Below are positions 37,534 through 53,665 of a stretch of 64,000 nucleotides of DNA, one piece after another. The notes beneath the pieces were generated by a model. That model was not told where the DNA came from and searched no databases. It was given only the letters and a program-made list of their open reading frames with translations. The DNA is taken from positions 13,826 to 77,825 of the IMG/VR virus record IMGVR_UViG_3300034062_003747. One strand, given 5' to 3'. Positions within the stretch are counted from its first letter, which is position 1. Every line of letters begins with the position of its first letter. The stretch is from a virus. The position numbers and the translations under genes were made by a program.

Positions 37534-38373
37534 TTAAATTAATTTAGGAACTTGTTTCCAACTAGGGTATGGTAAATTATATGTTGGGAAGTTTAATCTT
37601 AAATACTCATATACATTACATGCATAATCGTAGTTAGTTTTTGGACCAGGATGTACCCCATCTACTCCCTTATCTATTTGTGGTGAAAAATAATTACCAT
37701 CAAACCTATTATTATTATATTCTTTTGGTATCCCATACCATGTAGGTGGAAACGTGGGTATCTCAAACCAACCATTCCATAACCAATTACATCCCTTTGA
37801 CTCTAAAAAATATTTGATTAATTGATGATTTTTATACCAATTAATTAAATCCTCATTATCATTTTGCAATTCAGTTAAATATTTTTGTATTTTTTTACCA
37901 TCTTCAGTTTCTTCCATATATTCTTGTGCCGATGTTGGCATATATGGTTCTACCCCATTATCCTTAGTATATATCTCTCGTCTTAGAGGTGAGGTATACA
38001 TAATTAAAACTAAATCAGGTTTAAGTATTTCATAAAAGGTTATTAGTGCTCTACTTATATAATCATTACTTCCACCAACCCATCCTAAATTAAAATCAAC
38101 CCCATTAGGAATAAGTTTTGAAATTTGATGTGACCAAGTTTCATCATCATTTACTCCCACTCCTTCGGTATTTGAACACCCTATCGACATTATCTTAAAT
38201 CCTTTTTTATGAATTGAATCTCCTCTAAACCCCAATTCATTGTAAGTATATGTACATAATCCAGTACTATCACCACCGGTAGTATTGAATGATTTATTTA
38301 TTCTTTCTTTAAATGAGTTTTTATAAGATAAGGTTTCAAATCCATCTGATGTCCAATATTCTAATGGTTTCAT
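37534..38373 (-). CDS. SGNH/GDSL-like protein
   Basis: YNELGFRG, GCSNTEG, NLG..GGSND, DGVHPG; ends PKLI. Confidence 0.7.
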   Translation of the reverse strand: MKPLEYWTSDGFETLSYKNSFKERINKSFNTTGGDSTGLCTYTYNELGFRGDSIHKKGFKIMSIGCSNTEGVGVNDDETWSHQISKLIPNGVDFNLGWVGGSNDYISRALITFYEILKPDLVLIMYTSPLRREIYTKDNGVEPYMPTSAQEYMEETEDGKKIQKYLTELQNDNEDLINWYKNHQLIKYFLESKGCNWLWNGWFEIPTFPPTWYGIPKEYNNNRFDGNYFSPQIDKGVDGVHPGPKTNYDYACNVYEYLRLNFPTYNLPYPSWKQVPKLI

Positions 38374-39146
38374 ATTGAGTTATTTAAAACAATAAAATCA
38401 TAAAGGGTATTTGCAATTAATTTATATCCATCACCATTTGGGTGTTGAGCCACTTCAATTGGATTTGGTATTTTCTTCTCCCAAATATCTTTATCTTTAA
38501 AATTTTTTATTAACCACGACTCTAAAGATTCAATTCCAAACCCCCAATAATTTGTGGTGTCAATGAGGTGAGTAGTATCGTCATTTTTATTTAAATTCTG
38601 AACCATCAAATCAAACCCATCACACATAATGTATTTTATATTATATTCATTTAACATGTGTTGTAAATAAATTATATAATTTTGATTTATAATATTATAA
38701 TAATTTTGTGTAAATAAATTGCCTAAAAAGAATTTTTTATACTCAGTCAAAAAATTATTAAACTTTTCATCCCCATATGTGTATGATTCTATAAATTTAT
38801 TAGGTAGTTTAGATAGTTCTAATTGACCCCAACTTATCCATTCTCCTTTTGGTAGAAAGGGAACATAATCTCTTAAAGATGAACTCCACATGATAACGAC
38901 AAAATCATCTTTTTTAATTTTATTATTTCTTAAATCATTTATAACCTCATTAAAAATAATATTATTTGCTTTACCGCTCCATCCATTGTTTACAGCCTCT
39001 AACCCCATCTTATTTGCAAGGTGAGTAACCCAACTATTTTTATTTCTAAATAATTGTAATTGATTTCTATCCTTATAAGATTGTTCGGTGGGCCAATCAA
39101 TTCCTACCCCCTCTGTCCAACTATCTCCGTATGCGTATAATTTCAT
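38370..39146 (-). CDS. SGNH/GDSL-like protein
   Basis: YGDSWTEG, N.G.SG..N, QHPNGDGY. Confidence 0.72.
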   Translation of the reverse strand: MKLYAYGDSWTEGVGIDWPTEQSYKDRNQLQLFRNKNSWVTHLANKMGLEAVNNGWSGKANNIIFNEVINDLRNNKIKKDDFVVIMWSSSLRDYVPFLPKGEWISWGQLELSKLPNKFIESYTYGDEKFNNFLTEYKKFFLGNLFTQNYYNIINQNYIIYLQHMLNEYNIKYIMCDGFDLMVQNLNKNDDTTHLIDTTNYWGFGIESLESWLIKNFKDKDIWEKKIPNPIEVAQHPNGDGYKLIANTLYDFIVLNNSI

Positions 39147-39823
39147 ATTATATTTTTTAGTTTACCGTTTAAATTATCTAAGGGCGAATATAACACATGA
39201 GGTTTCCAACATTTAATATAATTATAAAAATTTTTAAAATTATCTAATGGTGGATATAATACAGCCGGATTCCAGTTATCAATTTGATTTATAAAATAAT
39301 TTTCTGCAGAATATCTATTTTCTAATGTTCCCCATCCATTTTTAACATATTGCGGTATTCTATTAATTGATTTAATGGTAGTCCACCAAAAATTACCACC
39401 ATAAAAATTATTAGGACACCAATGTTTAATAATCTCAGGATATTTGATTATATAATTATCAATTCTCATCAACACTCCAGATGTGTCAAACCCCATATTT
39501 AACAACTTAATATGTTCTTTATAATTATCTATCAATGATGCCTCCATATATTTTCTCCACTCAATTTCATATAACTTAGTTGGTTTCGATGCTCCCTTAG
39601 TGTGAATATATAAAATATAATCGGTATTATCAAACTCCTTTACTTCTTCTAACATTTTTAAAAAAGTGTGACATTCGTTTTCGTTAATATTGACAATATT
39701 GGGGTGATATGTGAATTCATCGGTAATCTGATTAAACACTCTTTCCTTTTGTTCCTCAGCTATTTTTAAACCAATGTTATCTGATGTATTACCTGACCAT
39801 ATGTGATGATATATCCGTATCAT
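39143..39823 (-). CDS. Putative glycosyltransferase-like protein
   Basis: LYIHTKG...WR.YM...GNFWW...R..AE; ends KNII. Confidence 0.45.
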   Translation of the reverse strand: MIRIYHHIWSGNTSDNIGLKIAEEQKERVFNQITDEFTYHPNIVNINENECHTFLKMLEEVKEFDNTDYILYIHTKGASKPTKLYEIEWRKYMEASLIDNYKEHIKLLNMGFDTSGVLMRIDNYIIKYPEIIKHWCPNNFYGGNFWWTTIKSINRIPQYVKNGWGTLENRYSAENYFINQIDNWNPAVLYPPLDNFKNFYNYIKCWKPHVLYSPLDNLNGKLKNII

Positions 39824-39881
39824 ATTAATACTTTTTTATTTGTTCTTCTTGTAATTTCTTTTGTTTCATATATTACGATAG

Positions 39882-40505
39882 TTATTTCCAAATAGAAAAT
39901 TGGTTTTGAATCTTATACCAAAATAATTCATCAGTTTTTAATAAAGTATTAATTTCAATCCATTGTTGGGGATATGTTTTGATTAAATACTGTATTAGTT
40001 CAGATTTGGATAACCATATTGGATAGTTTGAAAAATTATACTTTACTTCATCAAAAATAGGTAATTTTTCAATACCCATTTCTTTGGTTAAGAAATCGTT
40101 TAAATCATCCAACATTACAATAGTAGGTGGTGTAGGTAAAGAGACTCCAAACAAATATAGATATTTAAACAATTGATGATGCCAATGTAATTGGGAGTTA
40201 ATATCTATAATAAATTTATTTAACAGTTTCTTTTCTTCTAAAAATTTATTCTCCTTACTCAAACCCCCCAATAAAGATTGACTTTTTCTATTCCAACACC
40301 ACTCTATAAACTCCGTATGTAATGCGGATATTAGCAAATCCATTGGAGTTCTTAAAACTACCCATTTAATATTTGAAGTTAGTGGAATTTTTATTATATC
40401 AAACAAATCAATATATTCTCTATCAATGTTATACACCTCATATAAAAAACGTGAACCACATTTTGGAGGAGTTAGAATTTGCTTGTTGAAGACGTATAAT
40501 TTCAT
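39882..40505 (-). CDS. Sulfotransferase-like protein
   Basis: PPKCGSRFL P-loop-like PSB motif and VLRTP...ISAL. Confidence 0.5.
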   Translation of the reverse strand: MKLYVFNKQILTPPKCGSRFLYEVYNIDREYIDLFDIIKIPLTSNIKWVVLRTPMDLLISALHTEFIEWCWNRKSQSLLGGLSKENKFLEEKKLLNKFIIDINSQLHWHHQLFKYLYLFGVSLPTPPTIVMLDDLNDFLTKEMGIEKLPIFDEVKYNFSNYPIWLSKSELIQYLIKTYPQQWIEINTLLKTDELFWYKIQNQFSIWK

Positions 40506-40511: not shown

Positions 40512-41249
40512 TCATATTAATTTGTTGGTTTTTTCATTCAAAATTCTATTACGAATTTCTTTTGCGATAAATTTATGTCCGGCATCATTTTCGTGTGCAT
40601 ATAAATCTTTAGATAATCCATTTTTTATAATAAATTCAAAAAGACCTGTAAATAATAAATCATCAATATTACTAAATTTAATAAACTTACTTAAATCAAT
40701 TTTTTTAAATATATTTAATTTTTTAACAGATTTATCTAATTTAATATAGTTAAAAAAAAGATAATCAATATTATTTTTAATAAAATATTCCTGTAATATA
40801 AACATATAGTGTAAGGTTTCCTCACTTGCCCACGGTTCAGATTTTACTTTGTTATTATTATACATAAATGTATTAAGTTCACTATCCTTTATATATAAAT
40901 AATCTTTTGAATTATTTAAATAATATTCTTCACCCGTTTCAGTTAGGGTTCTTCTTCTATTCGGCCAAGTCCATTCTATAATAACTAAATCAGGTTTTTG
41001 ATTTTGGGAAATTAAATGTTCTATTTCTTCTAAAGTGGTGTGTAATATCCTATCATTTCCTCCACCATAAAAAGCACTATTAAATAATATATTATCTTCA
41101 TTATTTGTATTTTTATAAGAAATTATGTTTTGTATTAAAATTTCTTTAAAATTATCCACAATTGAATACATGAGTATTTTAGGCCAATTTAAACTGAATT
41201 CAGCCCAATCACCCGCAGAATATGAACATCCGTTTACATATAATTTCAT
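40512..41249 (-). CDS. SGNH/GDSL-like protein
   Basis: NGCSYS, GGGNDRI, IIEWT..R, AHENDAGH; ends NKLI. Confidence 0.68.
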   Translation of the reverse strand: MKLYVNGCSYSAGDWAEFSLNWPKILMYSIVDNFKEILIQNIISYKNTNNEDNILFNSAFYGGGNDRILHTTLEEIEHLISQNQKPDLVIIEWTWPNRRRTLTETGEEYYLNNSKDYLYIKDSELNTFMYNNNKVKSEPWASEETLHYMFILQEYFIKNNIDYLFFNYIKLDKSVKKLNIFKKIDLSKFIKFSNIDDLLFTGLFEFIIKNGLSKDLYAHENDAGHKFIAKEIRNRILNEKTNKLI

Positions 41250-41250: not shown

Positions 41251-42507
41251 TTACATTATATTTTGTTTAATTGTGTTATTTTTTTTCAAATCATTATTTA
41301 AAATCAAATCCAATAATGAATTTTCATTGTTCATTCTAAACATAAATTTAGTATGTACCACATCAGACCATTCTTTACATAATATATAATTTTCATCAAA
41401 GTTTTCCATAAATTCTTTTACGAATTTTGAAAATAATTTACCATCAACTTTATAATTTTTAGATTCTTTATAAAACGGATGTGGTGGAACATCAAATATT
41501 TTTTCAACCATTTCAATTGGGTATTCGTGTGTTGATATAAATGGTATCCCAGCTAATAATAATCCAATTGTTTTCTCCGAAAGGTACTGTGATGTAAATT
41601 TTTGTGTACTCCATGACCAACTCTCACATAGTATTTGCATTTTGGCTTTTGTTAAAACTCTAAAGAATATATCACCACATCCTTTTAAATTTTCAATATA
41701 ACTTATATCATCAAAATCAGTATTACCAAGTATTGAATTATTTTTAATATCATTTGAAACCAATGACCCATTTTTTTTATAATATTTATTATGATTTAAC
41801 GCATCACATGTTTTTAAATAAATTTTATTGTTATTTAAATTTTTTAATTCATTTAAAATACTAACTCTGTTTGATTTATGATTTCTTACACTATACATTA
41901 AATCATAATCAAAATTTAATTTATCATAGACCTGTTTAAATTCATACCACCATCTAATATTTAAATTTTTGTTCCATTGAAAAATAGAATTTGTAAGTGC
42001 AAAGTGAACGTTTTGATATTTGGATTTTACATGATTATTTAGAAAAAAATTATCAGTTATAATATAATGTTGATTTAATTGTTCTAATAGTGATTCTATT
42101 TCATTTGCTTTTTCATCAAACGCAATTTCTTCATATTTTTGAAATATTTTTTCCGTTCTGAAATAAGTGATTAACCACTTTTGGTTCTTTGGACAATCTT
42201 TTAATAGGTTTATAAATATTTTTAATATTTGTTGATTTTCCCTATCCATATAACTTCTATCTGGTAAGATTGGGCCTATTTTTGAATCTGTACTTGAATT
42301 AAAATATGCACTGAAATAATCTAATATATGATATCCATCCTCTTCAAAACTAATTTCTTCTTTAAAGATAAATTCAATATCAGTATTTTTGTATTTACAA
42401 AACACACTACCTGTATTGTTTTCAATAAAATATTTTCTATCGGTTGTATTATTTCCTAAAGTATATAATAACGATTTATCAAACTGATGATGTATATATA
42501 TTTTCAT
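41251..42507 (-). CDS. Putative GT-B glycosyltransferase-like protein (SEKT motif), paralog of 49184..50446
   Basis: QILCES...YLSEKT.GLL.GIPFI; ends QNIM. Confidence 0.45.
   Translation of the reverse strand: MKIYIHHQFDKSLLYTLGNNTTDRKYFIENNTGSVFCKYKNTDIEFIFKEEISFEEDGYHILDYFSAYFNSSTDSKIGPILPDRSYMDRENQQILKIFINLLKDCPKNQKWLITYFRTEKIFQKYEEIAFDEKANEIESLLEQLNQHYIITDNFFLNNHVKSKYQNVHFALTNSIFQWNKNLNIRWWYEFKQVYDKLNFDYDLMYSVRNHKSNRVSILNELKNLNNNKIYLKTCDALNHNKYYKKNGSLVSNDIKNNSILGNTDFDDISYIENLKGCGDIFFRVLTKAKMQILCESWSWSTQKFTSQYLSEKTIGLLLAGIPFISTHEYPIEMVEKIFDVPPHPFYKESKNYKVDGKLFSKFVKEFMENFDENYILCKEWSDVVHTKFMFRMNNENSLLDLILNNDLKKNNTIKQNIM
41366..41426. repeat. Direct repeat, 59/61 identical to 49296-49356
   Basis: gaccattctttacataa..tataattttcatcaaagttttccataaattcttttacgaatt in both paralogs. 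Confidence 0.85.
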
Positions 42508-42516: not shown

Positions 42517-42987
42517 TTATAAAAGTGTTATGCATTTTGCACCAAATGAATATACAAGTTTAATCGCCGCTATATTCCATTCAAATATTTCCATTCTAAT
42601 TTCTCTAAATTTTTTAAAAATAATTTTAGTTGTATTGCTATAAAACCAGTTCGAAGATTCATTTGGTCTTTCTATTACATTTGTAATGTATAAATTATAA
42701 GTAAAGCAACTGTCATTATTTATTTTTTTAAACCACCTATAACCAACCGGTTGTTCTTTATAATAAAATATAAACACATAATGACCATCATTAATTCTAG
42801 TATACACGTCAGTTATATTAAACATTCCGTCCCATTTATATTCTATATTAAAATAGTCAATCAATGTTTTCATTGAGTTTATATTTTTTTCTAACGTATC
42901 TAAATCCTCCACCAAAACATAACTTAAATCTTCATGTTCGGTTGTATATTCTATAAAAGTTTCTTTTGTTAGTTTAAAGGTTTTCAT
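42517..42987 (-). CDS. GNAT-like acetyltransferase
   Basis: PVGYRW, YNLYI, WNIAAIKL..SFG; ends ITLL. Confidence 0.55.
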   Translation of the reverse strand: MKTFKLTKETFIEYTTEHEDLSYVLVEDLDTLEKNINSMKTLIDYFNIEYKWDGMFNITDVYTRINDGHYVFIFYYKEQPVGYRWFKKINNDSCFTYNLYITNVIERPNESSNWFYSNTTKIIFKKFREIRMEIFEWNIAAIKLVYSFGAKCITLL

Positions 42988-43586
42988 AATATTGTTTGGT
43001 ATTTTTTATTAACAAATAAAATATTTAAATCTTTCCAATTTATTTTTTTATTAATCTCCTCTTTATTAATTACTATAAAGTTATTTTTTTCTAAATATTC
43101 AATAAGATAGGTGTGCCTATTTTCAGTATTATATAAATTTTCATTTCTACTCCCTTCAACTTGTCCTCTTTTTATTAAAGATATTTTTTCATTTAGGGAT
43201 TTAAGAATATCCAAATCACTACCTTGAGCATCACAATGAAAGTAATCAATTGAATCTATATTATTTTCATCTATAAATGTATCTAATCTTATAACTTCTA
43301 CATCCACTTCCATTTCATATTCGGTGATTTTATTTTCAATACTATAATTGGATAGTTCATTTATTGAAGATGACATTTTATTTTTTCCAATATAAAATTT
43401 TGAAATTCCATTTATCATTCCCACCGCTTTATTTATTATTTTAATATTTTTTTTATTAAAAAATCTTAATTTTAATTTTTCCGCGTGATAGTTGTCCGGT
43501 TCAAAACAATAAACAAACGAATCATCTTTGAGATATTTTTCAGTATCTTCACCATCAAATCCACCTATTTCTATAATTGTTTTCAT
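42984..43586 (-). CDS. FkbM-family methyltransferase
   Basis: IEIGGFDG, FEP, RLDTF, HCDAQGSD; ends QTIL. Confidence 0.85.
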   Translation of the reverse strand: MKTIIEIGGFDGEDTEKYLKDDSFVYCFEPDNYHAEKLKLRFFNKKNIKIINKAVGMINGISKFYIGKNKMSSSINELSNYSIENKITEYEMEVDVEVIRLDTFIDENNIDSIDYFHCDAQGSDLDILKSLNEKISLIKRGQVEGSRNENLYNTENRHTYLIEYLEKNNFIVINKEEINKKINWKDLNILFVNKKYQTIL

Positions 43587-43587: not shown

Positions 43588-44181
43588 TTAAATTAGTTTA
43601 GTAATGACATTATTTGAAGGATAAATAAAAATACAACCTCTTTTTTTAACTCCATTCATATATGATTCTTTACTAACATATTTTTCGTAACTATTTTTTC
43701 CATAAATCAACTCAACGTTAGATTTAATATGTTTCCAATTCAATTCTATGTTATTTCCGTTTTCATCAATATAACGTTCATAATCCCAATTCTCGTGGCC
43801 ACAATCAAAATCATGTATAATAATAATTGGTTTATAATTAAAATTTGAAATTATTTTCAATTCATCATTTATCGGCCAAGTACCCCAATGAGCATCTAAA
43901 AATATAAAAAATTTATCATGCCCTATTTCTATAAAAAATTTCTCTAAACATTCGGGTGAATTTCCTTTTAATATTTTAATATTCGGATTATTATTAAATC
44001 TATAATATAAAGGGAAATATTTACTATCTAATTCACAGCTATAAACTTTATCAAAAATGTGTTGTAAAATATCGACAGATTCTCCTTTGTTTGTACCCGT
44101 TTCTATTATAATGTTATAATCAAATTTTTGTTTTAATTTCATTATATCAATTATTAACATGCTATCTTGCTTAAACCCCAT
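43588..44181 (-). CDS. Class I SAM-dependent methyltransferase-like
   Basis: IIETGTNKG, SCEL, GNSP, FLDAH, IIIHD; ends TKLI. Confidence 0.72.
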   Translation of the reverse strand: MGFKQDSMLIIDIMKLKQKFDYNIIIETGTNKGESVDILQHIFDKVYSCELDSKYFPLYYRFNNNPNIKILKGNSPECLEKFFIEIGHDKFFIFLDAHWGTWPINDELKIISNFNYKPIIIIHDFDCGHENWDYERYIDENGNNIELNWKHIKSNVELIYGKNSYEKYVSKESYMNGVKKRGCIFIYPSNNVITKLI

Positions 44182-44217: not shown

Positions 44218-44973
44218 TCATAATAATCTTAAAGGTTTTTTTTTATACTTTGTTAGATTATAATTTATTGTTTCATACTCAACATCTTCAATTGTAATTT
44301 GAATTTTTGATTTACAATTTTGATTTAGATTATCGGTTTTTTTTAAAATAACATTTGCTAACATGGGTTGGACTCCGATTGAATAATGAACATCTTCATT
44401 GTTATGAAAATTATTTTTAATTAACCAATTAGCAAACCCATCTTCAAATTTAATATTTGTTCCATAATTTAATAGTGTATCCGTATAAGATGACTCCTCA
44501 ATGAAAATATAAAATATAGATATTTTTTTAGATATTAAATATTCAAATAACGGATTTATTAATTTAAATAATCTAAAATTATAATCTAATGAATTTTTTA
44601 AATAATAATCTACTAAAGATAAAACTCCTTCGTTTTCTTCTAACACTCTACTATATTTTTTTTTGTTAATAATTTCATTATCATATAGTTCATTAAATAA
44701 TACATTAGTAGATTCAATTGTATTAGTTACTTTATTTAAAAAACAACCTCTGGAAAGAAAAGAAAAATTAATGAGTATTATATCCCCCTCCCTATAATTT
44801 TGTAATTGTTCTAATATTTTTCTAAAAATAATTTCGTTTGATGCTCCTCCAACTGTGAATGCGGGAATATATTTATACTCTATACTATCCGCAATATGAT
44901 GACAAAAATGTTTATTATCACCATAATAATTTACTGTTCCATAACTATCACCAAAATGAAATAATTTTTTCAT
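44218..44973 (-). CDS. SGNH/GDSL-like protein
   Basis: FGDSYG, GASNE, DVHY; ends LRLL. Confidence 0.65.
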   Translation of the reverse strand: MKKLFHFGDSYGTVNYYGDNKHFCHHIADSIEYKYIPAFTVGGASNEIIFRKILEQLQNYREGDIILINFSFLSRGCFLNKVTNTIESTNVLFNELYDNEIINKKKYSRVLEENEGVLSLVDYYLKNSLDYNFRLFKLINPLFEYLISKKISIFYIFIEESSYTDTLLNYGTNIKFEDGFANWLIKNNFHNNEDVHYSIGVQPMLANVILKKTDNLNQNCKSKIQITIEDVEYETINYNLTKYKKKPLRLL

Positions 44974-44974: not shown

Positions 44975-46138
44975 TTAAAAATTTGTGAATATTTGTATAT
45001 TTTGATAATCCGTTTTCAATTTTTTTAATTTATTAACTTCGTCTAAAAACATTACATGCTCAGGATGTTCTGAGTTTCTTACATTTTTTATTTTAAATTG
45101 TCCTTCTGTAAATGTTCCCCAGTTATTAATATGGATAAAGTTTACTTCCGTTTTCATACCATTTAGTTTTTGTAAGTAATCTGCCAATTCCACAAACCCA
45201 ATCATTTCCGTATAATTATTATTTTGAACTACGAATGTTAATCTTACAAAATCTAAATTTGGTATTTTAGTGAATATAAATTGTAAGTTTTTATAAAGAA
45301 TATCCCAATTACCACCTAATCTTATTTGTTCATAAGTTTCCTTTGTACATGCGTCTATACTAATTTCTGCCGTTATTCTTGGTATTGAATGTAGATTTTC
45401 TAATCTATCCCATATTTTTTCTGTCCATCCGTTTCCGTTTGTGTGTAAATGTAAATTTTTTGTATTTGGGTATTTTTCCATTGTAATGGATTTTAAAAGA
45501 TTACGCCAAAACTCACTCCCAAATCCATCGCCACTTGCGGTAATGTATAATTCGTGAGCATCATTCATTGCAAATTCTAAAATTTTATCCTGTATGGTTT
45601 CTGATTTTTCTCTTTCTTTGCCCGTAGTATTAATAAAATCGGTTCTACATGATGGGCATTTAAGGTTACAACTTCTATCATGTGAAAAAATAACACACTC
45701 GGGCCCCCATGGTAAATCTGATATTTTTTCTTCAATAATTTTTTTAAACTTCTCTTCTCCGTCTGGGTTAATGGTTTTATTGTTCCAAAGTTTATGAAAT
45801 GTTTTTTCGTCAAAAATTGGGAAATACCCATTATCATAAACACTTTCATCTATTTCTTCATTATTCCATTTTTGTAAAAATCCACATTCTTTTTCATCAC
45901 AATATTTCATACTACCATCGTGCATAGAATCTCTCAATTTGATTGCAACCTCACTATTCCAAATATTATTCCAATTATCTGTCAATGCATTACCAGCAGG
46001 TCCACACTTAACCCAAGCGTTTACCCATCGTTTTTCTTCCTCACTCCAAGCACCGGAACAACATTGCCAAACTAAACCATTTGACTGAAATTCGGCATTT
46101 CTGAATGGTGCTACACAAAATCCTTTTTTATTACTCAT
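44975..46138 (-). CDS. Radical SAM protein with N-terminal Twitch/SPASM-like domain
   Basis: N-terminal FCVAPF...QCC...C..C; core SCNLKCPSC, HTNG, SIDA, YEQIR.GG. Confidence 0.85.
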   Translation of the reverse strand: MSNKKGFCVAPFRNAEFQSNGLVWQCCSGAWSEEEKRWVNAWVKCGPAGNALTDNWNNIWNSEVAIKLRDSMHDGSMKYCDEKECGFLQKWNNEEIDESVYDNGYFPIFDEKTFHKLWNNKTINPDGEEKFKKIIEEKISDLPWGPECVIFSHDRSCNLKCPSCRTDFINTTGKEREKSETIQDKILEFAMNDAHELYITASGDGFGSEFWRNLLKSITMEKYPNTKNLHLHTNGNGWTEKIWDRLENLHSIPRITAEISIDACTKETYEQIRLGGNWDILYKNLQFIFTKIPNLDFVRLTFVVQNNNYTEMIGFVELADYLQKLNGMKTEVNFIHINNWGTFTEGQFKIKNVRNSEHPEHVMFLDEVNKLKKLKTDYQNIQIFTNF

Positions 46139-47361
46139 ATTAACGTTGTATTTTTTTTAGGAAAATTTCCATTATTGATTAATATGTAACTTTCAATTGG
46201 AAAATTTAATCTTGTTGATTTAGGTACATTTAACACTTTTTTTAATTGGGAATTATTTTTAATACATACTAAATTTTTATTTGATATTATCTTTTCTAAT
46301 TCATTTGGTAATTTTTTTTCTTTATATGTTTTCCAAAAAGTAGTATTGTTTTTTGAACAATTATAATGATGTCTAATTATAATCATATTTTGTCTTTGTA
46401 TATTATTTATACTTTCATTAAATTCATTTTCACTTAAAGTATTATTTAAATATTTTTTAAAAGTTTTTAATTGTACCACAATTGTCATAATTGAGGTTGC
46501 TTCCAATGGTTCTAAAAAACCAGAACTTAACCCTACAATTAAACAATTATTTATTAATGTTTTTTCATAAGTTCCTGGTTCAAAAGTAATTGTTTTATTA
46601 ATTTGTATATCATTTCCAAATTTGTTTATTATTTCCGTTTTTGCAATATCTTCTGAAATAAGTTTTTTGTCAAAAATATATCCACACCCCCATCTATTTT
46701 GTAATGGTATTTGCCAAACCCACCCATAATCCATTGCAATTGCATTTGTTCTTGTATTAACCGTAACATCATTCCTTTTTAAGAAAAAAGGTATTGCTGT
46801 ATTAACTATTAATTCATCAGCATAAGTTTTCCACTTTAATTTAAATAGTTTTGGGGTTAACCTATGAAATCCACTACAATCAAATACAAAATCCGTATCA
46901 TAATTGATATTATTTTCTAATTTAATACTATTAATATCACCTTTTTCATTTTGTTCAATATTTTTTATTTTCCCATCTATGTGTTCTACTCCTCTGATTA
47001 TCGCAATTTCTTTTAAATAATCTGCTAATAATCTTGCATCAAAATGATATGCATATACACTTTTATCTTCTTCCATTAAATCACCAAATCCATGAACATA
47101 TGAATAATCTATATCTGACCAGTTGTGGAAATGAATACCTATTTTTTTTGTTCCATTTACTTTTTTTAATAAATCGCTTTCATCAATTTCTAATTCCGAT
47201 AGGAAATTTACCAAATTTGGAGTACTCCCTTCACCGGCACCTAGTATACCAATTTCCGAACTTTCTATTAGTTTTACGTTTGAATTTTTGTAATATTTTT
47301 TTGCAAAAATTGCAGTTAACCATCCGGCTGTTCCTCCACCAATTATTATAATATTGTTCAT
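46135..47361 (-). CDS. Flavin-dependent halogenase (tryptophan halogenase family)
   Basis: GGGTAGW, GAGEGSTP, Lys in GTKKIGI, DCSGF, WVWQIP, GFLEPLEATSI; ends TTLI. Confidence 0.88.
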   Translation of the reverse strand: MNNIIIIGGGTAGWLTAIFAKKYYKNSNVKLIESSEIGILGAGEGSTPNLVNFLSELEIDESDLLKKVNGTKKIGIHFHNWSDIDYSYVHGFGDLMEEDKSVYAYHFDARLLADYLKEIAIIRGVEHIDGKIKNIEQNEKGDINSIKLENNINYDTDFVFDCSGFHRLTPKLFKLKWKTYADELIVNTAIPFFLKRNDVTVNTRTNAIAMDYGWVWQIPLQNRWGCGYIFDKKLISEDIAKTEIINKFGNDIQINKTITFEPGTYEKTLINNCLIVGLSSGFLEPLEATSIMTIVVQLKTFKKYLNNTLSENEFNESINNIQRQNMIIIRHHYNCSKNNTTFWKTYKEKKLPNELEKIISNKNLVCIKNNSQLKKVLNVPKSTRLNFPIESYILINNGNFPKKNTTLI

Positions 47362-47840
47362 ATCAACGTTGTTTTTTTAATTAAATCCTCATAGTTAACA
47401 AATAACAAAGCACTTTTTCTAATTCCTTTTGTTATTTTACTTATTTCATGTAATCTATCTGATTTAAAAAAATAAGGAATTCCTGGTGTTTTGTCAACAA
47501 TAGAATCGGGATTATATAAAATATATTCCCCTCCATCGTAATCATCATTTATATGAAATCCCACAACATACGCCCTATTTTTATAACCCCTTTCAACTGA
47601 ATCAATATGTTTACCAAAATAATCACCCACATTATATTTATGGAGTGTTAAATTATAATCGTAAGATTTTAGTTTTTCACCACTTTCAATTTCAAACCAA
47701 TTTAATAGTTTAGTGGTTATATTCATTTCATTATTTGTAAGAACCGCAAATTCGTAACTTCGGTTTTTTAATTTTCTAAAATCCGTATTATTCCAAAAAG
47801 ATTTTAAAAAATCTAATTCAATATCACTATATAACTTCAT
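47358..47840 (-). CDS. 2OG-Fe(II) oxygenase (prolyl-hydroxylase-like)
   Basis: KY..GD.F..HID, DYDGGE, HEI..ITKGIRKS; ends TTLI. Confidence 0.85.
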   Translation of the reverse strand: MKLYSDIELDFLKSFWNNTDFRKLKNRSYEFAVLTNNEMNITTKLLNWFEIESGEKLKSYDYNLTLHKYNVGDYFGKHIDSVERGYKNRAYVVGFHINDDYDGGEYILYNPDSIVDKTPGIPYFFKSDRLHEISKITKGIRKSALLFVNYEDLIKKTTLI

Positions 47841-47842
47841 TT

Positions 47843-48451
47843 TTAATATATATTTTTTTTAGAACCATAATCCTTAGTATAATCTAATATTGTAAATCCT
47901 CCTGCATAAACGATTCGTTCTATATCCGAACTACGATTTAATTCAGGTTTGTGTAATAAATTTGCTGGAAATAAAATTAAATCTCCTACTTGTGGTAAAT
48001 ACGATACTTCTATACCTTCATTTGTTCTAAATAATATTTTTCCTTCTTGCTCGTTTAAATTATCAGGCATTTGTGCATAATAAACAAATGACCAATCTAT
48101 ATCCGTTTTTAAAGTATCGCTAAAAGTATGTGTATGAAATCTTGTCCAGTTGTTATTTTTATTAGAGACATATATCCATTCGGTACTAAAATATAAATTT
48201 ATATCATTTGTATTATAATTTAAAAATTTAAAAATTTTTTTATATATTTTAGTATTTAAATTTTTAATTGCTTTTGTTTTTAAAATTATATATGATTGAA
48301 TACCATGTTCTTTAACAGATTCGACTGATGTTTTTTTATTTACTTTCATATTAAATTTTAAATCTTTTATTAATTCAAAATTATTAATAGTTGGTAAATT
48401 TGTAATATAAAAAGAAACCACATCAGTTATTTTTATTTCTTTAAATTTCAT
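47843..48451 (-). CDS. 2OG-Fe(II) oxygenase-like
   Basis: HTH, WSFVYY, GDLILFPANLLH, ERIV; ends KNIY. Confidence 0.75.
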   Translation of the reverse strand: MKFKEIKITDVVSFYITNLPTINNFELIKDLKFNMKVNKKTSVESVKEHGIQSYIILKTKAIKNLNTKIYKKIFKFLNYNTNDINLYFSTEWIYVSNKNNNWTRFHTHTFSDTLKTDIDWSFVYYAQMPDNLNEQEGKILFRTNEGIEVSYLPQVGDLILFPANLLHKPELNRSSDIERIVYAGGFTILDYTKDYGSKKNIY

Positions 48452-49183
48452 TTATATTAAATTTATTTTATGTTTTTTTTCTTGTTTTAATAAAAACTCA
48501 TTTAATTCTTCTGCTATTTTTGCATGGCCAGAAATAGAAAGGTGCGATGATTCTGTATTTAAAAATTTATATTTTGTTGACCACTTTAAAATAGAATATT
48601 CGTTTTCCAAATTAAAAAAATTTCTTTTTTTTAATTCTTCTAACTGATTATCATTGTTTATTTCTGGCCAATACATTAATAAAATTTTATTATTTTTTTT
48701 CTCCGCATGTGAAACCAACGTATCAATTTGATATAATAAATAATTAAAAGTTTCTTTTTCATTATAATGATGTTCAATATAAGATGAATACATTTTTAAC
48801 ATTTCATCAATCGTATCATTTTTGTTTATATTTTTATCGTACATTTCCGAAATTAATGGATTTTTAAAATCAACTTCAAAATTTACAAAATTTGATTTTT
48901 CATTATATGTAGGTATAACATTAAATGCGTTGGGTTGGTAATTTACCCATTTTTGAAAATATGAACTATATAAACCAAGTCTATGTAACCAAGTAATTTG
49001 TAATATTATAAACGAATTTTCTATATTGTGTTTTGTTATATAATCATATATTTTATAAATAATATGATTATTACTTAATCCCGGATGTGATAAATTACTA
49101 ACATCGTATCCCATCTCTTTTAATATAGCACCATATGACTTAGTACCACATGAATATGAACAACCGGAAATTAAAACTTTCAT
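48452..49183 (-). CDS. SGNH/GDSL-like protein
   Basis: SGCSYS, NLS.PG.SN, QIT...R, SHLS..GH; ends INLI. Confidence 0.68.
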   Translation of the reverse strand: MKVLISGCSYSCGTKSYGAILKEMGYDVSNLSHPGLSNNHIIYKIYDYITKHNIENSFIILQITWLHRLGLYSSYFQKWVNYQPNAFNVIPTYNEKSNFVNFEVDFKNPLISEMYDKNINKNDTIDEMLKMYSSYIEHHYNEKETFNYLLYQIDTLVSHAEKKNNKILLMYWPEINNDNQLEELKKRNFFNLENEYSILKWSTKYKFLNTESSHLSISGHAKIAEELNEFLLKQEKKHKINLI

Positions 49184-50446
49184 TTAAATTAGTTTTGATG
49201 TGGTGGTGGTGGAATATTTAAAGTCGTTAATCATCAAATCTAATAAAGAGTTTTCATTATAAAATTTATCCATAAAAGCTATATGACATATATCTGACCA
49301 TTCTTTACATAAAGTATAATTTTCATCAAAGTTTTCCATAAATTCTTTTACGAATTCTGCAATCTTAACCGCATCTCCTTTTATTTTTTTACTTTCATTA
49401 TAAAATGGGTGAGGTGGTATATCTAAAATTTTATTTAAAACTTCTAATGGGTAACTATGTGTTGATATAAATGGTATACCTGATAATACAAACCCTATGG
49501 TTTTTTCTGAAAGGTAATGTGATGCAAAATCTGAATCTGCCCACGACCAACTTTCATCTAATATTTGCATTTTTGAAATATTTAATACTCTATAAAATAA
49601 ATCTAAACCAAGTCTATTTTTATGTATTAAATGTAAATTATCAAAATCGTTATCACCTTCCATAGAATTTAGGTATATATCCGTTACTTTATTTTCATGT
49701 GTTAAATTTAGTTCACTATTTTTACGAGCATCTGACCTTTGTAAAAAAATCCTATTATTATTAAGTTTTTTTAATTCATTTAATAAAAGTATTCTATTGT
49801 ATTTATATGACCTAATTGAAAAACACAAATCATAATCAAAATTTAATTTATCATATATTTTTTTAAATTCATAATACCATCTTATTTCTGCATGAAAATT
49901 CCAATACCACATTGAATTTGAAAAAGTATAATAAAAATTAGAGTATTTTAATCTTATTTCATCTTTTATAAAAACTTCTTCTAATACTATTTTATGATTT
50001 TTTAATTTTAAAAAAGAATTTTCTATATCGTATAATAAATCCATATTTTTCTTATAAAATACATTTTCATATTTAAATAAAGTCTTTTCACCATTGAAAA
50101 ACATTATTATCCAATTCGTTTTACCTTCTAATAAATTACATAAATTATCAACGGGATTATTGACTATATTATCTATTGAGACATCTTTTTTATATAACGC
50201 TTGTGTAATGTTTTCAAATTTTATATCTTTAGTATTTTGTGATATTATTGTATTTAAATCTAATAAATGATATCCATCAGTTTCATCAGACATTTCTATT
50301 TTAAAAATAAATTCGATTTCCGTACCTTTATATTTACATTTTACACTACCCGCTTGGTTTGTAATATTAAATTCTTTATCTGTTGTATTATGGGCAAGTT
50401 TATAAAAGGTATCTTCTGAGTAATAATGGTGGATATATATTTTCAT
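49184..50446 (-). CDS. Putative GT-B glycosyltransferase-like protein (SEKT motif), paralog of 41251..42507
   Basis: MKIYIHH start, QILDES...YLSEKT...GIPFISTH; ends SKLI. Confidence 0.45.
   Translation of the reverse strand: MKIYIHHYYSEDTFYKLAHNTTDKEFNITNQAGSVKCKYKGTEIEFIFKIEMSDETDGYHLLDLNTIISQNTKDIKFENITQALYKKDVSIDNIVNNPVDNLCNLLEGKTNWIIMFFNGEKTLFKYENVFYKKNMDLLYDIENSFLKLKNHKIVLEEVFIKDEIRLKYSNFYYTFSNSMWYWNFHAEIRWYYEFKKIYDKLNFDYDLCFSIRSYKYNRILLLNELKKLNNNRIFLQRSDARKNSELNLTHENKVTDIYLNSMEGDNDFDNLHLIHKNRLGLDLFYRVLNISKMQILDESWSWADSDFASHYLSEKTIGFVLSGIPFISTHSYPLEVLNKILDIPPHPFYNESKKIKGDAVKIAEFVKEFMENFDENYTLCKEWSDICHIAFMDKFYNENSLLDLMINDFKYSTTTTSKLI
49296..49356. repeat. Direct repeat, 59/61 identical to 41366-41426
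   Basis: Direct comparison of the two segments. Confidence 0.85.
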
Positions 50447-51061
50447 TTATAGAATTTTTTTAGTTCCATTAATTCTATACTTTTTGTCAATATTCATATG
50501 TTTTCCCATAACTATTTCATCGTATGTTATATTAAAATATTTACAAAACTTCATCATATTTTCGTTTTGGTTTTCAATATATAAATCTTCATAATAGAAT
50601 ATTGGAATAGTATATGTTTCAGAAATATAAGTAAACGTGTTTTTTTCGTTTTCTAATAAACTTTTATATTTGTTTATCGAATTAGTATCTATCTGTTGGT
50701 AAACATATTTTGAATTCCAATTATCAGATTTTCTTGCATTGGCTAAACTTTCAGTTTGAGAATCAATATCTCTTCGTATTAGAATACCAATAATATCAAA
50801 TTTTGATTTTAAAAGTGTAATTAGTTCATCGGTGTTTAGATGTTGTAATTCAATAGGAAAGGAATCATTTCCGATTTTATTTTCTACAAAAATATTTGGA
50901 TTAGATATTATTTTTTTAAACTGATATTCTATACCAGTATCTCTGATTGCAGTAGTATTAAACGGTTCTCTATATACTATGGTATCTAAATTAGATTCTC
51001 TTACATAACGGGTTAAGTTTAAACTACCTGTTCTACCCTGTGATAATAATAACCTTTTCAT
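50447..51061 (-). CDS. Sulfotransferase-like (Stf0-type) protein
   Basis: SQGRTGS, EPFN, LIRRD...Q.ES, YYEDL; ends KKIL. Confidence 0.65.
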   Translation of the reverse strand: MKRLLLSQGRTGSLNLTRYVRESNLDTIVYREPFNTTAIRDTGIEYQFKKIISNPNIFVENKIGNDSFPIELQHLNTDELITLLKSKFDIIGILIRRDIDSQTESLANARKSDNWNSKYVYQQIDTNSINKYKSLLENEKNTFTYISETYTIPIFYYEDLYIENQNENMMKFCKYFNITYDEIVMGKHMNIDKKYRINGTKKIL

Positions 51062-51633
51062 TATATTAATTTTTTATCTACATTAAATTGTCTTAATTTA
51101 TTTTTTGTATTTAAAATATCATAATCCAATTTGATTTCTTTATTTTTTAACCCATCACCATAATATATAGATTCATATGTATCCAATGGTATATTAAATT
51201 TTTCGGATAATTTTCTTAAATATGTATTCTCTATGGTAAGTTGATTCATTATTGGATTGACATCCACATCTAAATTGTATACATATTTTACATCAAATTT
51301 ATTTCCGTTATGTAGATTAATAAATGATTCGGCATGTTCTTTTACATTTTCTCTACTTAATAAAATGGTAGTATCGAATTTTGGAATTAATTCGGAGTAA
51401 AAATCATAACACTTTTCAAAATAAGATATTGGAAGACTTTCGAACTTTGGTGATGTATTATCTATTTGGTGTAATATTGTTTTTACAACAACATTTTCTT
51501 TATTGTATTTTTTTCGTTCTAATCCCCAAGATGCATATGGTTCAAATATTATTTTTAAATTATAACTATTTGCTATTGATTTTTGCAAAGATGTCGAACC
51601 ACATCTAGCACTAGATATAATTAAAAAATTCAT
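51061..51633 (-). CDS. Sulfotransferase-like (Stf0-type) protein
   Basis: SSARCGSTSL, FEPY, VVK, LSREN...ES, TYESIY; ends KKLI. Confidence 0.65.
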   Translation of the reverse strand: MNFLIISSARCGSTSLQKSIANSYNLKIIFEPYASWGLERKKYNKENVVVKTILHQIDNTSPKFESLPISYFEKCYDFYSELIPKFDTTILLSRENVKEHAESFINLHNGNKFDVKYVYNLDVDVNPIMNQLTIENTYLRKLSEKFNIPLDTYESIYYGDGLKNKEIKLDYDILNTKNKLRQFNVDKKLI

Positions 51634-51653: not shown

Positions 51654-51797
51654 CTAACTATGTTTCGCTTTCAAAAATTGTACAAATTTTGCTAAAATTG
51701 TTTGTACATTTGCTTTCTGTGTTGTATTGGTTAAAACAATAGTTCTATTATGTACTGCGGTTGCTGGTGTTGATTTATATTTTGCTGGAGTTTCCAT
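51654..51797 (-). CDS. 47-aa peptide (not in ORF track)
   Basis: METPAKYKSTPATAVHNRTIVLTNTTQKANVQTILAKFVQFLKAKHS; fills the gap, ATG 7 nt after the upstream stop. Confidence 0.6.
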   Translation of the reverse strand: METPAKYKSTPATAVHNRTIVLTNTTQKANVQTILAKFVQFLKAKHS

Positions 51798-51804
51798 AGT
51801 TATA

Positions 51805-53631
51805 TTATTTATTGTGTACTAAAATATTATTAGCGTAAAAATTATGATGATTAGAAACACTTAATAAGTTATAAACCGTATGAGTTTCTTCTAATATTTC
51901 AACTGATACTATTTTTTTATCTTCCAATAAATCAGTTTTACAAATATCATTAGATTGTAATTCATTAGCCTTAACCCATCCTTTTTCTTTTACAAAAAAT
52001 GGATGCTCGGTTGTAGTAATAATAGTTTTTTCACCATCAAAAGTTAATTTGATTACGGATGAAACTTCGTGTTTTTTCAAATCACCAACTACTCCTGTTT
52101 CGTTAAATCCTGTTTCTTCATTATAGGTAAGAACATTTTCACCAACTATAACATCTTCAATATTTTTTAAAGAATTATCACTAAGTGTAATTTGAGTTCC
52201 TGCTGGAAAGCACCAGTTGTGGGTAATAATAAATGAAGTGTTTATAATATTATCAGTTCCTGCTATTAAATATGTATCGACATCTTCAACGTCAATTTCA
52301 ACTATTTTATGAGTATCCTCATTTAAAACGTAAAGATTATTTTCATCTATTGTTACATTATTTCCTGCGTTATCTACTAACAAATCCGTTGCTGGGTCAA
52401 TCTTTAATGCCTTTTTAAATACTATTGAGTTGGTATCTGTTTGATATACTAAAAATGTATTTGATACTGAGGCGTAAATTGTGTCACCCCCTATTTTTAA
52501 CTCATTTATAATATTGTTTTCAATACTTGCAGAAAATATGTTTTCAACAAAAGATGAAGTAGTATATGAACCAGTAGGAAGTGTACTTCCCTCATTTTCC
52601 CAACTAAATACTTCATCAACGTTATCACGCATTGGTGAACCACTTATAAAGTATGATTTAACCCTGTCACCAACAATCAAATTTTGCATTTGAGTTAATG
52701 AATCATCTTCCATTACTATTTCATGTGTACCTAATAAACCACCCTTTGTTCTTTGAGGTTGTTTTGTAAAATTGGTAGCAAATTCATAATAATGTTTTGG
52801 AGACAATAAGTTATTGATAATGGTGTTATCAATTTCTGTCGATAGATTGGTTGGTAAATCAAATATTGATTCAATTTGGTAATCTAATAATGGAATAATA
52901 TCTAAGTTTGCTCCGTAAATAATATTAAAGCTTCTTATTGATGTAATTTTATTATTTGAACTTACACTACTTGGATTGAAGTGATATTGTTGAATCATAT
53001 CTCCCTCTGCAGCTTGATTTACAATAAATTCATTAATTCTTACATCAGCTGATAATTCAGATTTTCCAACTTTATAAAATGCTCCTTGTTGTTTTTGTTC
53101 TATTTTTTTCTTTACCACAAAATCAGGAATACTATTATTGTCGTTTATAGTTCCGTCTAATGTATTGTAAGTCCCATCAATTAAAGATGAGTGGTAAAAA
53201 TTACATACTGAACCGGTTTCATCATTATCAGCAAATAATTTTAAAAGCTCTAACTTACCCTTTGCATATTCAGAATCTACAACTGCAGTTTCATCATATG
53301 CTAATCTTAATATAAATTTACTTTCACTATCTTCTGGAGTTGTTGGGAATATACTAGTTAATTCTGTTATAGTTTTAGTAAAGGTAGTAATATATGGAGC
53401 ACTTTCACTTAAAGATTGTGATAAGTGATTTACAAAATTACTATGTAATTCATCCTTATATACAACCGATACCTCAGTTATATTATTACTATTTAATATA
53501 CCAAAAAAGTTTGTAAAATCAATCAATGGTAGTGCGTTATTTAAAAACGCTGTATCTGTGTTAATTTCTAATAATCTTTCATTTCCATTATTATCAATAA
53601 CAAAATCGGATGAGAATAGTATTCCTTTCAT
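51805..53631 (-). CDS. Circularly permuted ATP-grasp-like ligase fused to two tandem Hint domains
   Basis: N-terminal SDFVID..G..RLLEINTDT, later FVVKK and MIQQY; Hint1 about aa 298-472 ending ITHN; W473; Hint2 CFPAGT...TTEHPF...VYNL...FYANNILVHN-K. Confidence 0.7.
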   Translation of the reverse strand: MKGILFSSDFVIDNNGNERLLEINTDTAFLNNALPLIDFTNFFGILNSNNITEVSVVYKDELHSNFVNHLSQSLSESAPYITTFTKTITELTSIFPTTPEDSESKFILRLAYDETAVVDSEYAKGKLELLKLFADNDETGSVCNFYHSSLIDGTYNTLDGTINDNNSIPDFVVKKKIEQKQQGAFYKVGKSELSADVRINEFIVNQAAEGDMIQQYHFNPSSVSSNNKITSIRSFNIIYGANLDIIPLLDYQIESIFDLPTNLSTEIDNTIINNLLSPKHYYEFATNFTKQPQRTKGGLLGTHEIVMEDDSLTQMQNLIVGDRVKSYFISGSPMRDNVDEVFSWENEGSTLPTGSYTTSSFVENIFSASIENNIINELKIGGDTIYASVSNTFLVYQTDTNSIVFKKALKIDPATDLLVDNAGNNVTIDENNLYVLNEDTHKIVEIDVEDVDTYLIAGTDNIINTSFIITHNWCFPAGTQITLSDNSLKNIEDVIVGENVLTYNEETGFNETGVVGDLKKHEVSSVIKLTFDGEKTIITTTEHPFFVKEKGWVKANELQSNDICKTDLLEDKKIVSVEILEETHTVYNLLSVSNHHNFYANNILVHNK

Positions 53632-53656
53632 AATTCTTTAATTTGTTTTCTTTGTG

Positions 53657-53665
53657 TATAAATAT
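53657..53665 (-). promoter_or_regulatory. Putative late promoter ATATTTATA heading the tailoring operon
   Basis: Motif 25 nt upstream of ATG 53631, directly after a terminator. Confidence 0.6.

Follow-up and report, generated by a model that had tools for sequence, protein, structure and literature searches.

An ATP-grasp–Hint gene, a small peptide, and a shared C-terminal tail accompany variable tailoring-enzyme arrays in uncultured phages

Tandem arrays of dioxygenases and halogenases in cyanophages were described as "unprecedented" by Iyer et al. 2010 (PMC2938197), who also proposed that in bacteria tail-collar and collagen-like proteins are first hydroxylated and then sulfated, on the basis of bacterial operons that carry the same enzyme classes together with PAPS (3′-phosphoadenosine 5′-phosphosulfate) synthetase and an acetyltransferase. 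The glycosyltransferase-rich hypervariable regions of pelagimyophages have been read as modifiers of the host surface (PMC7029224). Here we describe a 20-gene enzyme array in a 64,000-nucleotide stretch of viral DNA (the window; positions 13,826 to 77,825 of IMG/VR record IMGVR_UViG_3300034062_003747), part of a 77.8-kb uncultured viral record that is about 44% complete and that carries T4-type genes (baseplate wedge, UvsW-like helicase, RNA ligase, and Hsp20). The enzyme cargo of this array is of a known, unexplained kind. The ATP-grasp–Hint fusion gene at its head, the small "YK" peptide gene that follows, and the C-terminal tail shared by most of its enzymes form a new arrangement, which is present in many uncultured phages, and none of the three was found in the literature searched.

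The arrays of cyanomyoviruses (Syn9 gp41–gp52) resemble the window in that they occur in aquatic T4-like phages, consist of runs of unrelated 2-oxoglutarate (2OG)-dependent and tryptophan-halogenase-type enzymes, and include distant homologues of the window's halogenase and of g8, one of its 2OG oxygenases. In contrast to the window, they contain no ATP-grasp–Hint gene, no YK peptide, and no tail (0/17 in Syn9), and the window's cargo is broader, with additional sulfo-, glycosyl-, methyl-, and acyl-transfer enzymes and a radical SAM enzyme. A large subset of oxygenase/halogenase arrays, a puzzle since 2010, is now tied to an invariant two-gene core and a four-residue tail, and what had been a heap of auxiliary genes becomes a system with testable parts.

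The two-gene core and its viral relatives

The window operon comprises 20 minus-strand open reading frames (ORFs), g1 to g20, running from 53631 to 37534 (Table 1). Junctions between consecutive ORFs range from a 4-nt overlap to a 58-nt gap, and GC content is 0.22–0.28 within the operon vs. 0.30–0.34 in its surroundings. An earlier reading of the sequence alone had described 20 co-oriented, nearly gap-free, AT-rich ORFs here; its coordinates proved exact, and the 20 ORFs are supported as one transcription-unit-like block. There are no structural genes inside the island.

This operon belongs to a widespread family of islands, restricted to viruses, that consist of the head gene (g1), the peptide gene (g2), and a variable set of enzymes. 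We compared 80 uncultured viral loci and 7 closer loci from a metagenome scan. In essentially every usable locus a variable enzyme array lies downstream of the head gene and in the same orientation, and in all usable loci, about 79 of them from uncultured viruses, an ORF of 43–53 amino acids (aa) lies directly 3′ of the head gene, which bears out the suggestion of the sequence-only reading that a conserved head gene and peptide would be linked to variable enzyme cargo. Cargo families recur with different frequencies across loci (2OG oxygenases 50, the g3/g4 family 31, radical SAM 29, SGNH 24, and the g20 family 14), and no peptide-directed maturase (radical SAM/SPASM, halogenase, 2OG, or methyltransferase) is universal among them. 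Relatives also carry families that are not in the window, including SET, HAD, GT25, GMD/epimerase, Asp/Asn β-hydroxylase, and PCMT. The genes that neighbor the islands are the same as in the window, namely Hsp20, HD phosphohydrolase, the phrog_8420 endonuclease, and PhoH.

The head protein has more than 400 homologues at cluster level in metagenomes and 335 representatives among 1.84 billion proteins, where it forms a virus-only family. Among the non-fragment matches listed, the ATP-grasp domain begins at or near residue 1 and the protein is long enough for one to three Hint copies. No match to the N-terminal domain was found in 50,697 cultured phage records, no cellular relatives of it were detectable by HMMER, and megablast of the operon against cultured phages returned no match. 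Among 185,579 prokaryote genomes there is one relative of the head gene, on a 2.8-kb contig binned to a Cyanobium metagenome-assembled genome (L108). This contig is too short for a prophage call or for naming a host; it might point to a picocyanobacterial host for some members of the head family, or be a binning artefact. DNA nearly identical to window positions 44000–53700 is present in lake-water metagenomes (20 listed runs from 20 studies, with 62–98% of sampled words), and when two possible source samples are left out at least 18 lake-water studies still hold at least 62% of sampled words. The phage is thus common in freshwater lakes. Marine and freshwater viromes abound in relatives, and the product of the islands may therefore matter for phage–host ecology.

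The N-terminal domain of the head protein resembles circularly permuted ATP-grasp ligases. In the AlphaFold2 (AF2) model of this domain (pLDDT 90), the top 26 VIA matches of residues 1–291 are all glutathione synthetase (GS), YgiC, YjfC, GspS, or trypanothione synthetase (Z 10.6–7.4). The best of them (Z 10.6, root-mean-square deviation 5.1, 222 aligned) and the Foldseek result (E 3e-6) agree with this placement. These alignments begin at residue 1, whereas the alignments of the unpermuted TTL and RimK start only near residue 50 (Z 5.6–6.4). Like GspS, YgiC, YjfC, and eukaryotic GS, which are its best fold matches over the whole 290-residue domain at Z 8.8–10.6, the g1 domain has an N-terminal metal-binding E-x-N strand and conserved Lys/Arg residues; E22-x-N24, R109, K174, K187, and R233 are invariant in the g1 family. 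Unlike them it is roughly 100–300 residues shorter, is always fused to Hint, occurs in viruses only, and has no sequence-level membership in these families. A 41-sequence profile matched no PDB chain at E up to 10. The assignment as a permuted ATP-grasp therefore holds at the level of the modeled fold, unseen by sequence profiles, and ATP-dependent carboxylate–amine ligation is a predicted activity. GS and GspS phosphorylate the C-terminal α-carboxylate of a peptide and then pass it to an amine, while TTL and RimK act on protein C-termini.

The remainder of g1 consists of Hint domains. The sequence-only reading had assigned the head protein a permuted ATP-grasp and two Hint domains; the fold and both Hint domains stand, and the first of them has no nucleophile. 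The second Hint domain (aa 474–607) matches PT-HINT (4e-13, 50.2 bits vs. a cutoff of 27.7) and Intein_splicing (3e-11) in Pfam, and C1, T67, H70, H133, and N134 are invariant in 29 sequences, corresponding to Cys1, T-x-x-H, and the terminal His-Asn. The first Hint domain aligns to the profile of the second (hhalign 96%, E 5e-9) and matches PDB entries 6y75 and 6tmm (1.4e-7) and the BIL domain 2lwy (8.7e-5). It lacks an N-terminal Cys/Ser nucleophile, with an invariant Gly298 where the domain begins, and its terminal His-Asn is also invariant. In Hint domains, a thioester is made at the residue that precedes Cys1, and cleavage takes place behind the terminal Asn.

These domains share the Hint fold, Cys1, T-x-x-H, and terminal His-Asn with BIL and pretoxin-HINT domains. 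Unlike those, g1 has no toxin or extein after Hint and ends in a single Lys, one residue past His-Asn (other members end in a short tail), and across the family the first copy is nucleophile-less and the copy number is 1 to 3. We rejected the possibility that the gene is a polymorphic-toxin PT-HINT module: no toxin domain lies C-terminal to Hint, and the downstream genes encode enzymes with common C-terminal rather than N-terminal ends. We also rejected the idea that the single Trp between the Hint domains supplies the halogenase. A Trp linker is confined to the window's subclade; other head proteins have AP, SP, a longer linker, or none.

Head proteins vary in other respects. In the group comprising L008, L011, L018, P0034, P0110, and P0115, some end in ...P-K-L or ...P-K-I after the last His-Asn. 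Head forms of 460–500 aa have only the nucleophile-less Hint, and some other head proteins have an additional C-terminal Hint-like piece ending in ...FKRQAVFQ.

The peptide encoded by g2 belongs to a family in which Tyr7 is invariant, Lys8 is at least 90% conserved as a near-invariant Lys/Arg, and a C-terminal helix is conserved. Conservation extends over the full length of the peptide, and there is no split between a leader and a variable core of the kind expected for precursors of ribosomally synthesized and posttranslationally modified peptides (RiPPs).

A C-terminal tail shared by unrelated enzymes

Most cargo proteins in the window end in a similar short sequence. We scored this tail as a C-terminal [LIMV][LIM] pair; it is mostly K-x-L-I, with the consensus across loci K-x-[LI]-[IL] (K at position −4, K/N/S/T at −3, L/I at −2, and I/L at −1). 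It is present in 14/18 cargo ORFs vs. 6/54 other ORFs in the window (Fisher 2.6e-7; 5% predicted by composition), and the fraction outside the operon is close to chance. Across loci, 270/482 ORFs downstream of the head gene carry the tail vs. 120/599 others (P = 8e-35). It is frequent in cargo families of different chemistry, including 2OG oxygenases, the commonest family (100/118), the g3/g4 family (35/39), SGNH (29/39), and radical SAM (39/55), and occurs in 0–1 members of untagged flanking families such as Hsp20, HD phosphohydrolase, and PhoH. The tail tracks enzyme families rather than position. It also covaries with the head gene. Phage arrays that lack the head gene contain almost none (1/28 in HTVC008M, 1/13 in P-SSM5, and 0/11 in S-H38, besides the Syn9 count given above), and cyanophage homologues of g8 encoded without a head gene have the tail in 0/4 cases.

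We considered and rejected the possibility that the tail is a by-product of AT-rich stop–start junctions or a recombination site. Synonymous codons in the tail mirror those of the gene body (Leu codons at −2 are used alike) and stop codons vary, which indicates selection on the protein and not on a DNA junction. Furthermore, untailed families occur within the same loci, the AT-rich P-SSM5 array lacks the tail, and g20, the last gene of the operon, keeps it ahead of a 75-nt gap. In the AF2 model of g5 (pLDDT 87) the tail is disordered (residues 413–420 below 50).

Enzymes that make donors are tailed as well, including APS kinase and GMD/epimerase (sugar-nucleotide enzymes), and the tail thus looks like a signal for co-localization rather than a device of one enzyme class. 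In two relatives (L085 and L087) a tailed APS kinase (4e-16) adjoins the island beside the head gene. There it is paired, just upstream of the head gene (L087:265-1067 and L085:7635-8437), with a 124-aa protein bearing an HxGH-type nucleotidyltransferase motif. This pair may be a minimal route of PAPS supply; the window has neither gene.

Interpretations of the island

The shared tail is the strongest clue to how this set of enzymes works together. We favor, at a little short of an even chance, the reading that the island is a protein or peptide decoration system built on a hub and a tail, for which we infer the tail binder, the substrate, the chemistry, and the timing. The hub would be the head protein, with its permuted ATP-grasp, nucleophile-less Hint, and one to three active Hint domains; the second part would be the 43–53 aa peptide with its Tyr-Lys pair, encoded immediately downstream; and the third would be an exchangeable cargo of tailoring enzymes, which for the most part end in the flexible K-x-[LI]-[IL]-COOH tail: 2OG hydroxylases, halogenase, radical SAM, GT-B, GNAT, and SGNH enzymes, SET-domain and other methyltransferases, and sulfotransferases together with PAPS supply. 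The tail would act as a docking signal, its free carboxylate read by the hub, and docking would bring enzymes of unrelated families, along with the helpers that make their donors, to a single work-piece. That work-piece would most likely be the YK peptide, or else a protein that the hub holds or ligates by ATP-grasp chemistry, Hint thioester chemistry, or both; the YK peptide could be either work-piece or adaptor. The work-piece might then be hydroxylated, halogenated, methylated, sulfated, glycosylated, and acylated, with glycan and sulfate possibly among the additions. A promoter-like motif is common to the operon and virion genes (see below), and the product would therefore probably be borne on the particle or act late in infection.

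Several lines of evidence are consistent with this reading. The nearest enzyme families of the hub (GS and GspS) work on a peptide C-terminal carboxylate, an analogy that would suit a reader of free C-terminal tails, and the protein-directed cargo of relatives (SET, Asp/Asn β-hydroxylase, and PCMT) favors a protein or peptide substrate. A predicted complex of the head protein, the peptide, and g8 gives weak support, with an ipSAE of 0.41 (runs 0.30, 0.41, and 0.51; contact agreement at least 50%, partner pLDDT at least 79) vs. a best value of 0.00 among three controls, in one of which only the head was replaced and the peptide was kept. The mark used for this score was reached by 58/80 solved complexes and 2/110 mismatched pairs, but in the band up to 0.60 by only 7 of those 80 solved complexes and by both mismatches. 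Logically, such docking would be similar to dockerin–cohesin pairs, encapsulin cargo loading, and the encapsulation peptides of microcompartments, in which a terminal signal on unrelated enzymes leads to a scaffold. Likeness ends there, since the signal here is four residues long and includes a free carboxylate, the presumed reader is an ATP-grasp–Hint protein, and no shell or cohesin homologue is present. If the tail does dock enzymes on the hub, multi-enzyme modification machinery would be assembled in a new and very compact manner, Hint domains and the glutathione-synthetase fold would be put to a new purpose, and the tail would be a portable tag for bringing enzymes together.

Other observations weigh against a hub that reads tails. 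The complex prediction, besides being weak, yields no interface for binding of the tail by the hub, and the N-terminal domain of g1 matches no Pfam family at E up to 10, ATP-grasp families included. The peptide is conserved over its full length while cargo varies, which is more in keeping with an adaptor than with a substrate that every enzyme acts on, and its residues show no relation to the presence of SET, sulfotransferase, or P4H cargo. Within the window the radical SAM enzyme g10 (which ends in TNF) and g17 are untailed, and tailed ORFs occur outside the island (a PNK/HAD-like protein, a peptide deformylase, and a cysteine-dioxygenase-like cupin). The GT-B, FkbM, SGNH, and sulfotransferase genes and the nearby carbamoyltransferase would suit glycan tailoring equally. 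Finally, covariation of tail and hub was observed with few head-less comparators and among loci chosen through the head gene.

We also weighed readings without a hub. The enzymes could form a virion-decoration toolkit that adds hydroxyl, glycosyl, sulfate, methyl, and acyl groups to late structural proteins such as fibers, collagen-like proteins, or polyproline proteins, the head being, for example, a self-cleaving virion protein, the peptide a small structural protein, and the tail serving another purpose. The promoter-like motif common to virion genes is consistent with such a toolkit, as are the presence of P4H-type 2OG enzymes, the GT-B fold, and APS kinase and the hydroxylation-then-sulfation proposal of Iyer et al. 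2010 (PMC2938197). Nevertheless, we regard it as unlikely, since it explains neither why the tail tracks the head gene nor why head and peptide are the only invariant genes, and the island contains no structural gene. Remodeling of the host envelope has been suggested for the LPS-type (lipopolysaccharide) genes of pelagimyophage hypervariable regions (PMC7029224), and the islands or their flanks contain GT-B, FkbM, SGNH, sulfotransferase-like, nucleotide-sugar epimerase, and carbamoyltransferase genes, whose products could likewise act on glycans of the LPS, capsule, or S-layer and so exclude superinfecting phage or block re-adsorption of progeny. This is distinctly improbable here: SET, halogenase, P4H-type and Asp/Asn hydroxylases, and SPASM-type radical SAM suggest peptide substrates, neither a flippase nor a polymerase nor signal peptides were seen, a late-type motif sits oddly with exclusion, and the hub, the peptide, and the tail would go unexplained. 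If the tail were instead a packaging or delivery signal, tailed enzymes would be loaded into the particle and injected to rewire the next host, much as encapsulin cargo and T4 internal proteins are loaded by a common short terminal signal; the operon's promoter-like motif, of a type that precedes virion genes, speaks for this. Yet a load of 18 enzymes, some of them donor makers such as APS kinase, would be heavy, T4-type loading uses N-terminal signals cut by the prohead protease, and the ATP-grasp–Hint gene would have no role, which makes this very improbable. We give almost no credence to a cassette that hypermodifies phage DNA. 2OG, radical SAM, P-loop, glycosyltransferase, and methyltransferase enzymes are known from base-hypermodification pathways, but Pfam scans of the operon ORFs found no nucleotide-pathway, DNA-binding, or base-flipping families, in agreement with the sequence-only reading as regards nucleotide-pathway genes, and the halogenase, SET, SGNH, and sulfotransferase content does not suit DNA.

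Two further possibilities give the small peptide or the tail a direct chemical part. In a RiPP-like pathway, the 47-aa peptide would be a heavily modified precursor (proteusin-like, or a scaffold for a C-terminal small molecule), the ATP-grasp would ligate or extend it, and a Hint or SGNH step would free the product. RiPP and scaffold-peptide pathways (proteusins, PQQ, PEARL-type) similarly place a small peptide beside a ligase, the small ORF here always adjoins the ligase gene, and SPASM-like radical SAM, halogenase, 2OG, methyltransferase, and GNAT enzymes are classic peptide tailoring enzymes. SET and β-hydroxylase in relatives, and an ATP-grasp family that works on peptide C-termini, point the same way. 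However, the peptide has no leader/core split and a C-terminus that is not invariant, it lacks the conserved acidic residues that graspetide-type links need, a third of the loci have no radical SAM gene, and no RiPP recognition element, protease, or transporter/exporter was detected; recognition seems to run through enzyme tails in the window vs. a peptide leader in RiPPs. We therefore consider a RiPP-like pathway rather unlikely. In the other possibility the tail would serve as a substrate. In this ubiquitin-E1-like scheme the ATP-grasp would activate the Ile/Leu carboxylate of tailed enzymes, a Hint Cys would capture the thioester, and the enzymes would be coupled to the Lys or Tyr of the YK peptide or to the virion, with the one to three Hint domains as single-use acyl carriers. 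We judge this scheme quite unlikely.

A promoter-like motif, cargo enzymes, and neighboring genes

The sequence-only reading placed a terminator and a late motif at the start of the operon. A strong terminator-like hairpin is present and closes the upstream Hsp20-like gene; the motif is also present, but it is ATATTTATA and not a T4 late promoter. On the coding strand, ATATTTATA lies 4–49 nt before the start codons of at least six other genes, including virion genes, and 8/15 of its coding-strand copies are in intergenic DNA. The copy that follows the one at g1 lies just beyond g20. ATATTTATA is the reverse complement of the T4 late box TATAAATA, and we rejected an identification with the T4 late promoter since coding-strand TATAAATA is not enriched before genes and ATATTTATA recurs instead. 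The sequence suggests that ATATTTATA is a lineage-specific promoter. Late expression of the operon would then be expected from the virion genes that share the motif. In four lake metatranscriptome assemblies we found 150–480-nt pieces of the head gene and of several cargo genes at 90–99% identity; in such RNA-library contigs DNA carry-over is possible, strand, ends, and co-transcription are not readable from them, and parts without coverage carry no information.

Table 1. Positions and assignments of the operon's genes, head-protein domains, and nearby signals (window coordinates)
Feature	Position	Strand	Basis
Terminator-like hairpin and T-run closing the upstream Hsp20-like gene	53681..53706	-	11-bp stem, 5 GC pairs, T-run after
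Promoter-like intergenic motif ATATTTATA, 26 nt before g1 ATG	53657..53665	-	Sequence reading
Other intergenic ATATTTATA copies	4931-4938, 10101-10108, 18021-18028, 23042-23049, 37481-37488, 60900-60907	coding strand	Motif scan of window
g1 aa 1-297: circularly permuted ATP-grasp ligase domain (predicted), GspS/eukaryotic glutathione-synthetase type	52741..53631	-	Fold match
g1 aa 298-472: first Hint/BIL-like domain, Gly in place of Cys1	52216..52740	-	Profile comparison
g1 aa 473-608: Trp linker, active-type Hint, final Lys	51805..52215	-	Pfam
g2: 47-aa YK peptide	51654..51797	-	Conserved ORF directly after head gene
g3: sulfotransferase-like P-loop protein, tail KKLI	51061..51633	-	Family RxGS[TS] motif
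g4: g3 paralogue, tail KKIL	50447..51061	-	Same family cluster as g3
g5: GT-B-fold glycosyltransferase-like, tail SKLI	49184..50446	-	Foldseek on AF2 model
g6: SGNH-like, block I GCSYS, tail INLI	48452..49183	-	Motif reading; no significant Pfam match
g7: 2OG-Fe(II) oxygenase	47843..48451	-	Pfam 2OG-FeII_Oxy_5 2.9e-5; phrog_81 7e-14
g8: 2OG-Fe(II) oxygenase, P4H-type family, tail TTLI	47358..47840	-	Pfam 2OG-FeII_Oxy_3 above curated cutoff
g9: flavin-dependent halogenase, tail TTLI	46135..47361	-	Trp_halogenase 1.5e-91
g10: radical SAM, N-terminal SPASM-like Cys-rich region, without tail	44975..46138	-	Pfam Radical_SAM and SPASM
g11: SGNH-like, block I GDSYG, tail LRLL	44218..44973	-	Clusters with g19
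g12: weakly class-I methyltransferase-like, tail TKLI	43588..44181	-	RrnaAD E 0.04 (also L085 homologue); ETGTNKG
g13: FkbM-type methyltransferase, tail QTIL	42984..43586	-	Methyltransf_21 1.2e-10
g14: GNAT-like, tail ITLL	42517..42987	-	Acetyltransf_1 matches of family members
g15: GT-B-like g5 paralogue, tail QNIM	41251..42507	-	47% identity to g5
g16: DUF6071/SGNH-like, tail NKLI	40512..41249	-	Pfam DUF6071 6.5e-6; clusters with g20
g17: distant sulfotransferase-like P-loop protein, without tail	39882..40505	-	Own cluster
g18: DUF8361-like viral protein, tail KNII	39143..39823	-	Atlas feature score 0.98 to viral DUF8361 clusters
g19: GDSL/SGNH hydrolase-like	38370..39146	-	Lipase_GDSL 2.5e-5
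g20: SGNH-like, tail PKLI, conserved as the final gene in many islands	37534..38373	-	Homologues 52-63% identical at the array end in 19 loci

Most cargo family calls of the sequence-only reading stand, by different routes. Halogenase, radical SAM, two 2OG oxygenases, an FkbM-type methyltransferase, and GDSL/DUF6071 proteins were found directly and GT-B by fold, while sulfotransferase and GNAT were reached through family members and the other methyltransferase (g12) is weak. Hallmark motifs are intact in the halogenase, radical SAM, 2OG, and SGNH members checked, as expected if the active sites are preserved. The halogenase g9, whose closest relative is in Pelagibacter phage HTVC008M, has GGGTAG at residue 8 (GxGxxG) and WVWQIP at residue 214 (WxWxIP). 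The radical SAM enzyme g10 has CNLKCPSC at residues 157–164 (CxxxCxxC) and scores 26.2 bits against Radical_SAM, for which the cutoff is 29.5; its SPASM-like match (4e-5, residues 8–85) is N-terminal to the core, the reverse of the usual order.

The sulfotransferase-like assignments come from the family as a whole. Among 42 aligned g3-family sequences, three match Stf0 (best 1.9e-5), three match Sulfotransfer_4 (7e-5), and two match Sulfotransfer_3, while the window copies of g3, g4, and g17 have no Pfam match; PDB matches of the g3 family to NodH and to a sulfotransferase are at E of about 1, and tblastn of g3 against cultured phages found no match. The third such protein, g17, is 13–18% identical to the g3/g4 family by alignment, and 5/7 members of its cluster carry the tail. 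For g5 and g15, the top Foldseek matches are all GT-B enzymes (e.g., WaaG, OtsA, TarM, and SdgB; E 8e-5 to 2e-3, TM 0.35–0.43), with no sequence family in Pfam and nothing useful from a PDB profile; an Atlas lead to GT10 scored only 0.88. In the g14 family 8/16 members scanned match Acetyltransf_1 (best 8.6e-7), and the window copy does not. Blocks GxS, G, N(D), and H are invariant in the g20 family, whose PDB GDSL matches are weak (E 0.04–1.5), and g6 and g11 are read as SGNH-like from block I.

Among genes outside the island, the PNK/HAD-like protein, peptide deformylase, and cupin named above (27272-27709, 28913-29530, and 35378-35779, respectively) and a HAD nucleotidase-like protein (55800-56285) have hydrophobic-pair ends and are possible tail carriers. 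The window also encodes, outside the operon, a NodU/Nol-like carbamoyltransferase (phrog_1601, 2e-116; 23087-24802) and a second radical SAM gene (27706-28905). In one relative (L003) a stretch of about 1.3 kb with two small ORFs separates a carbamoyltransferase homologue from the head gene downstream of it.

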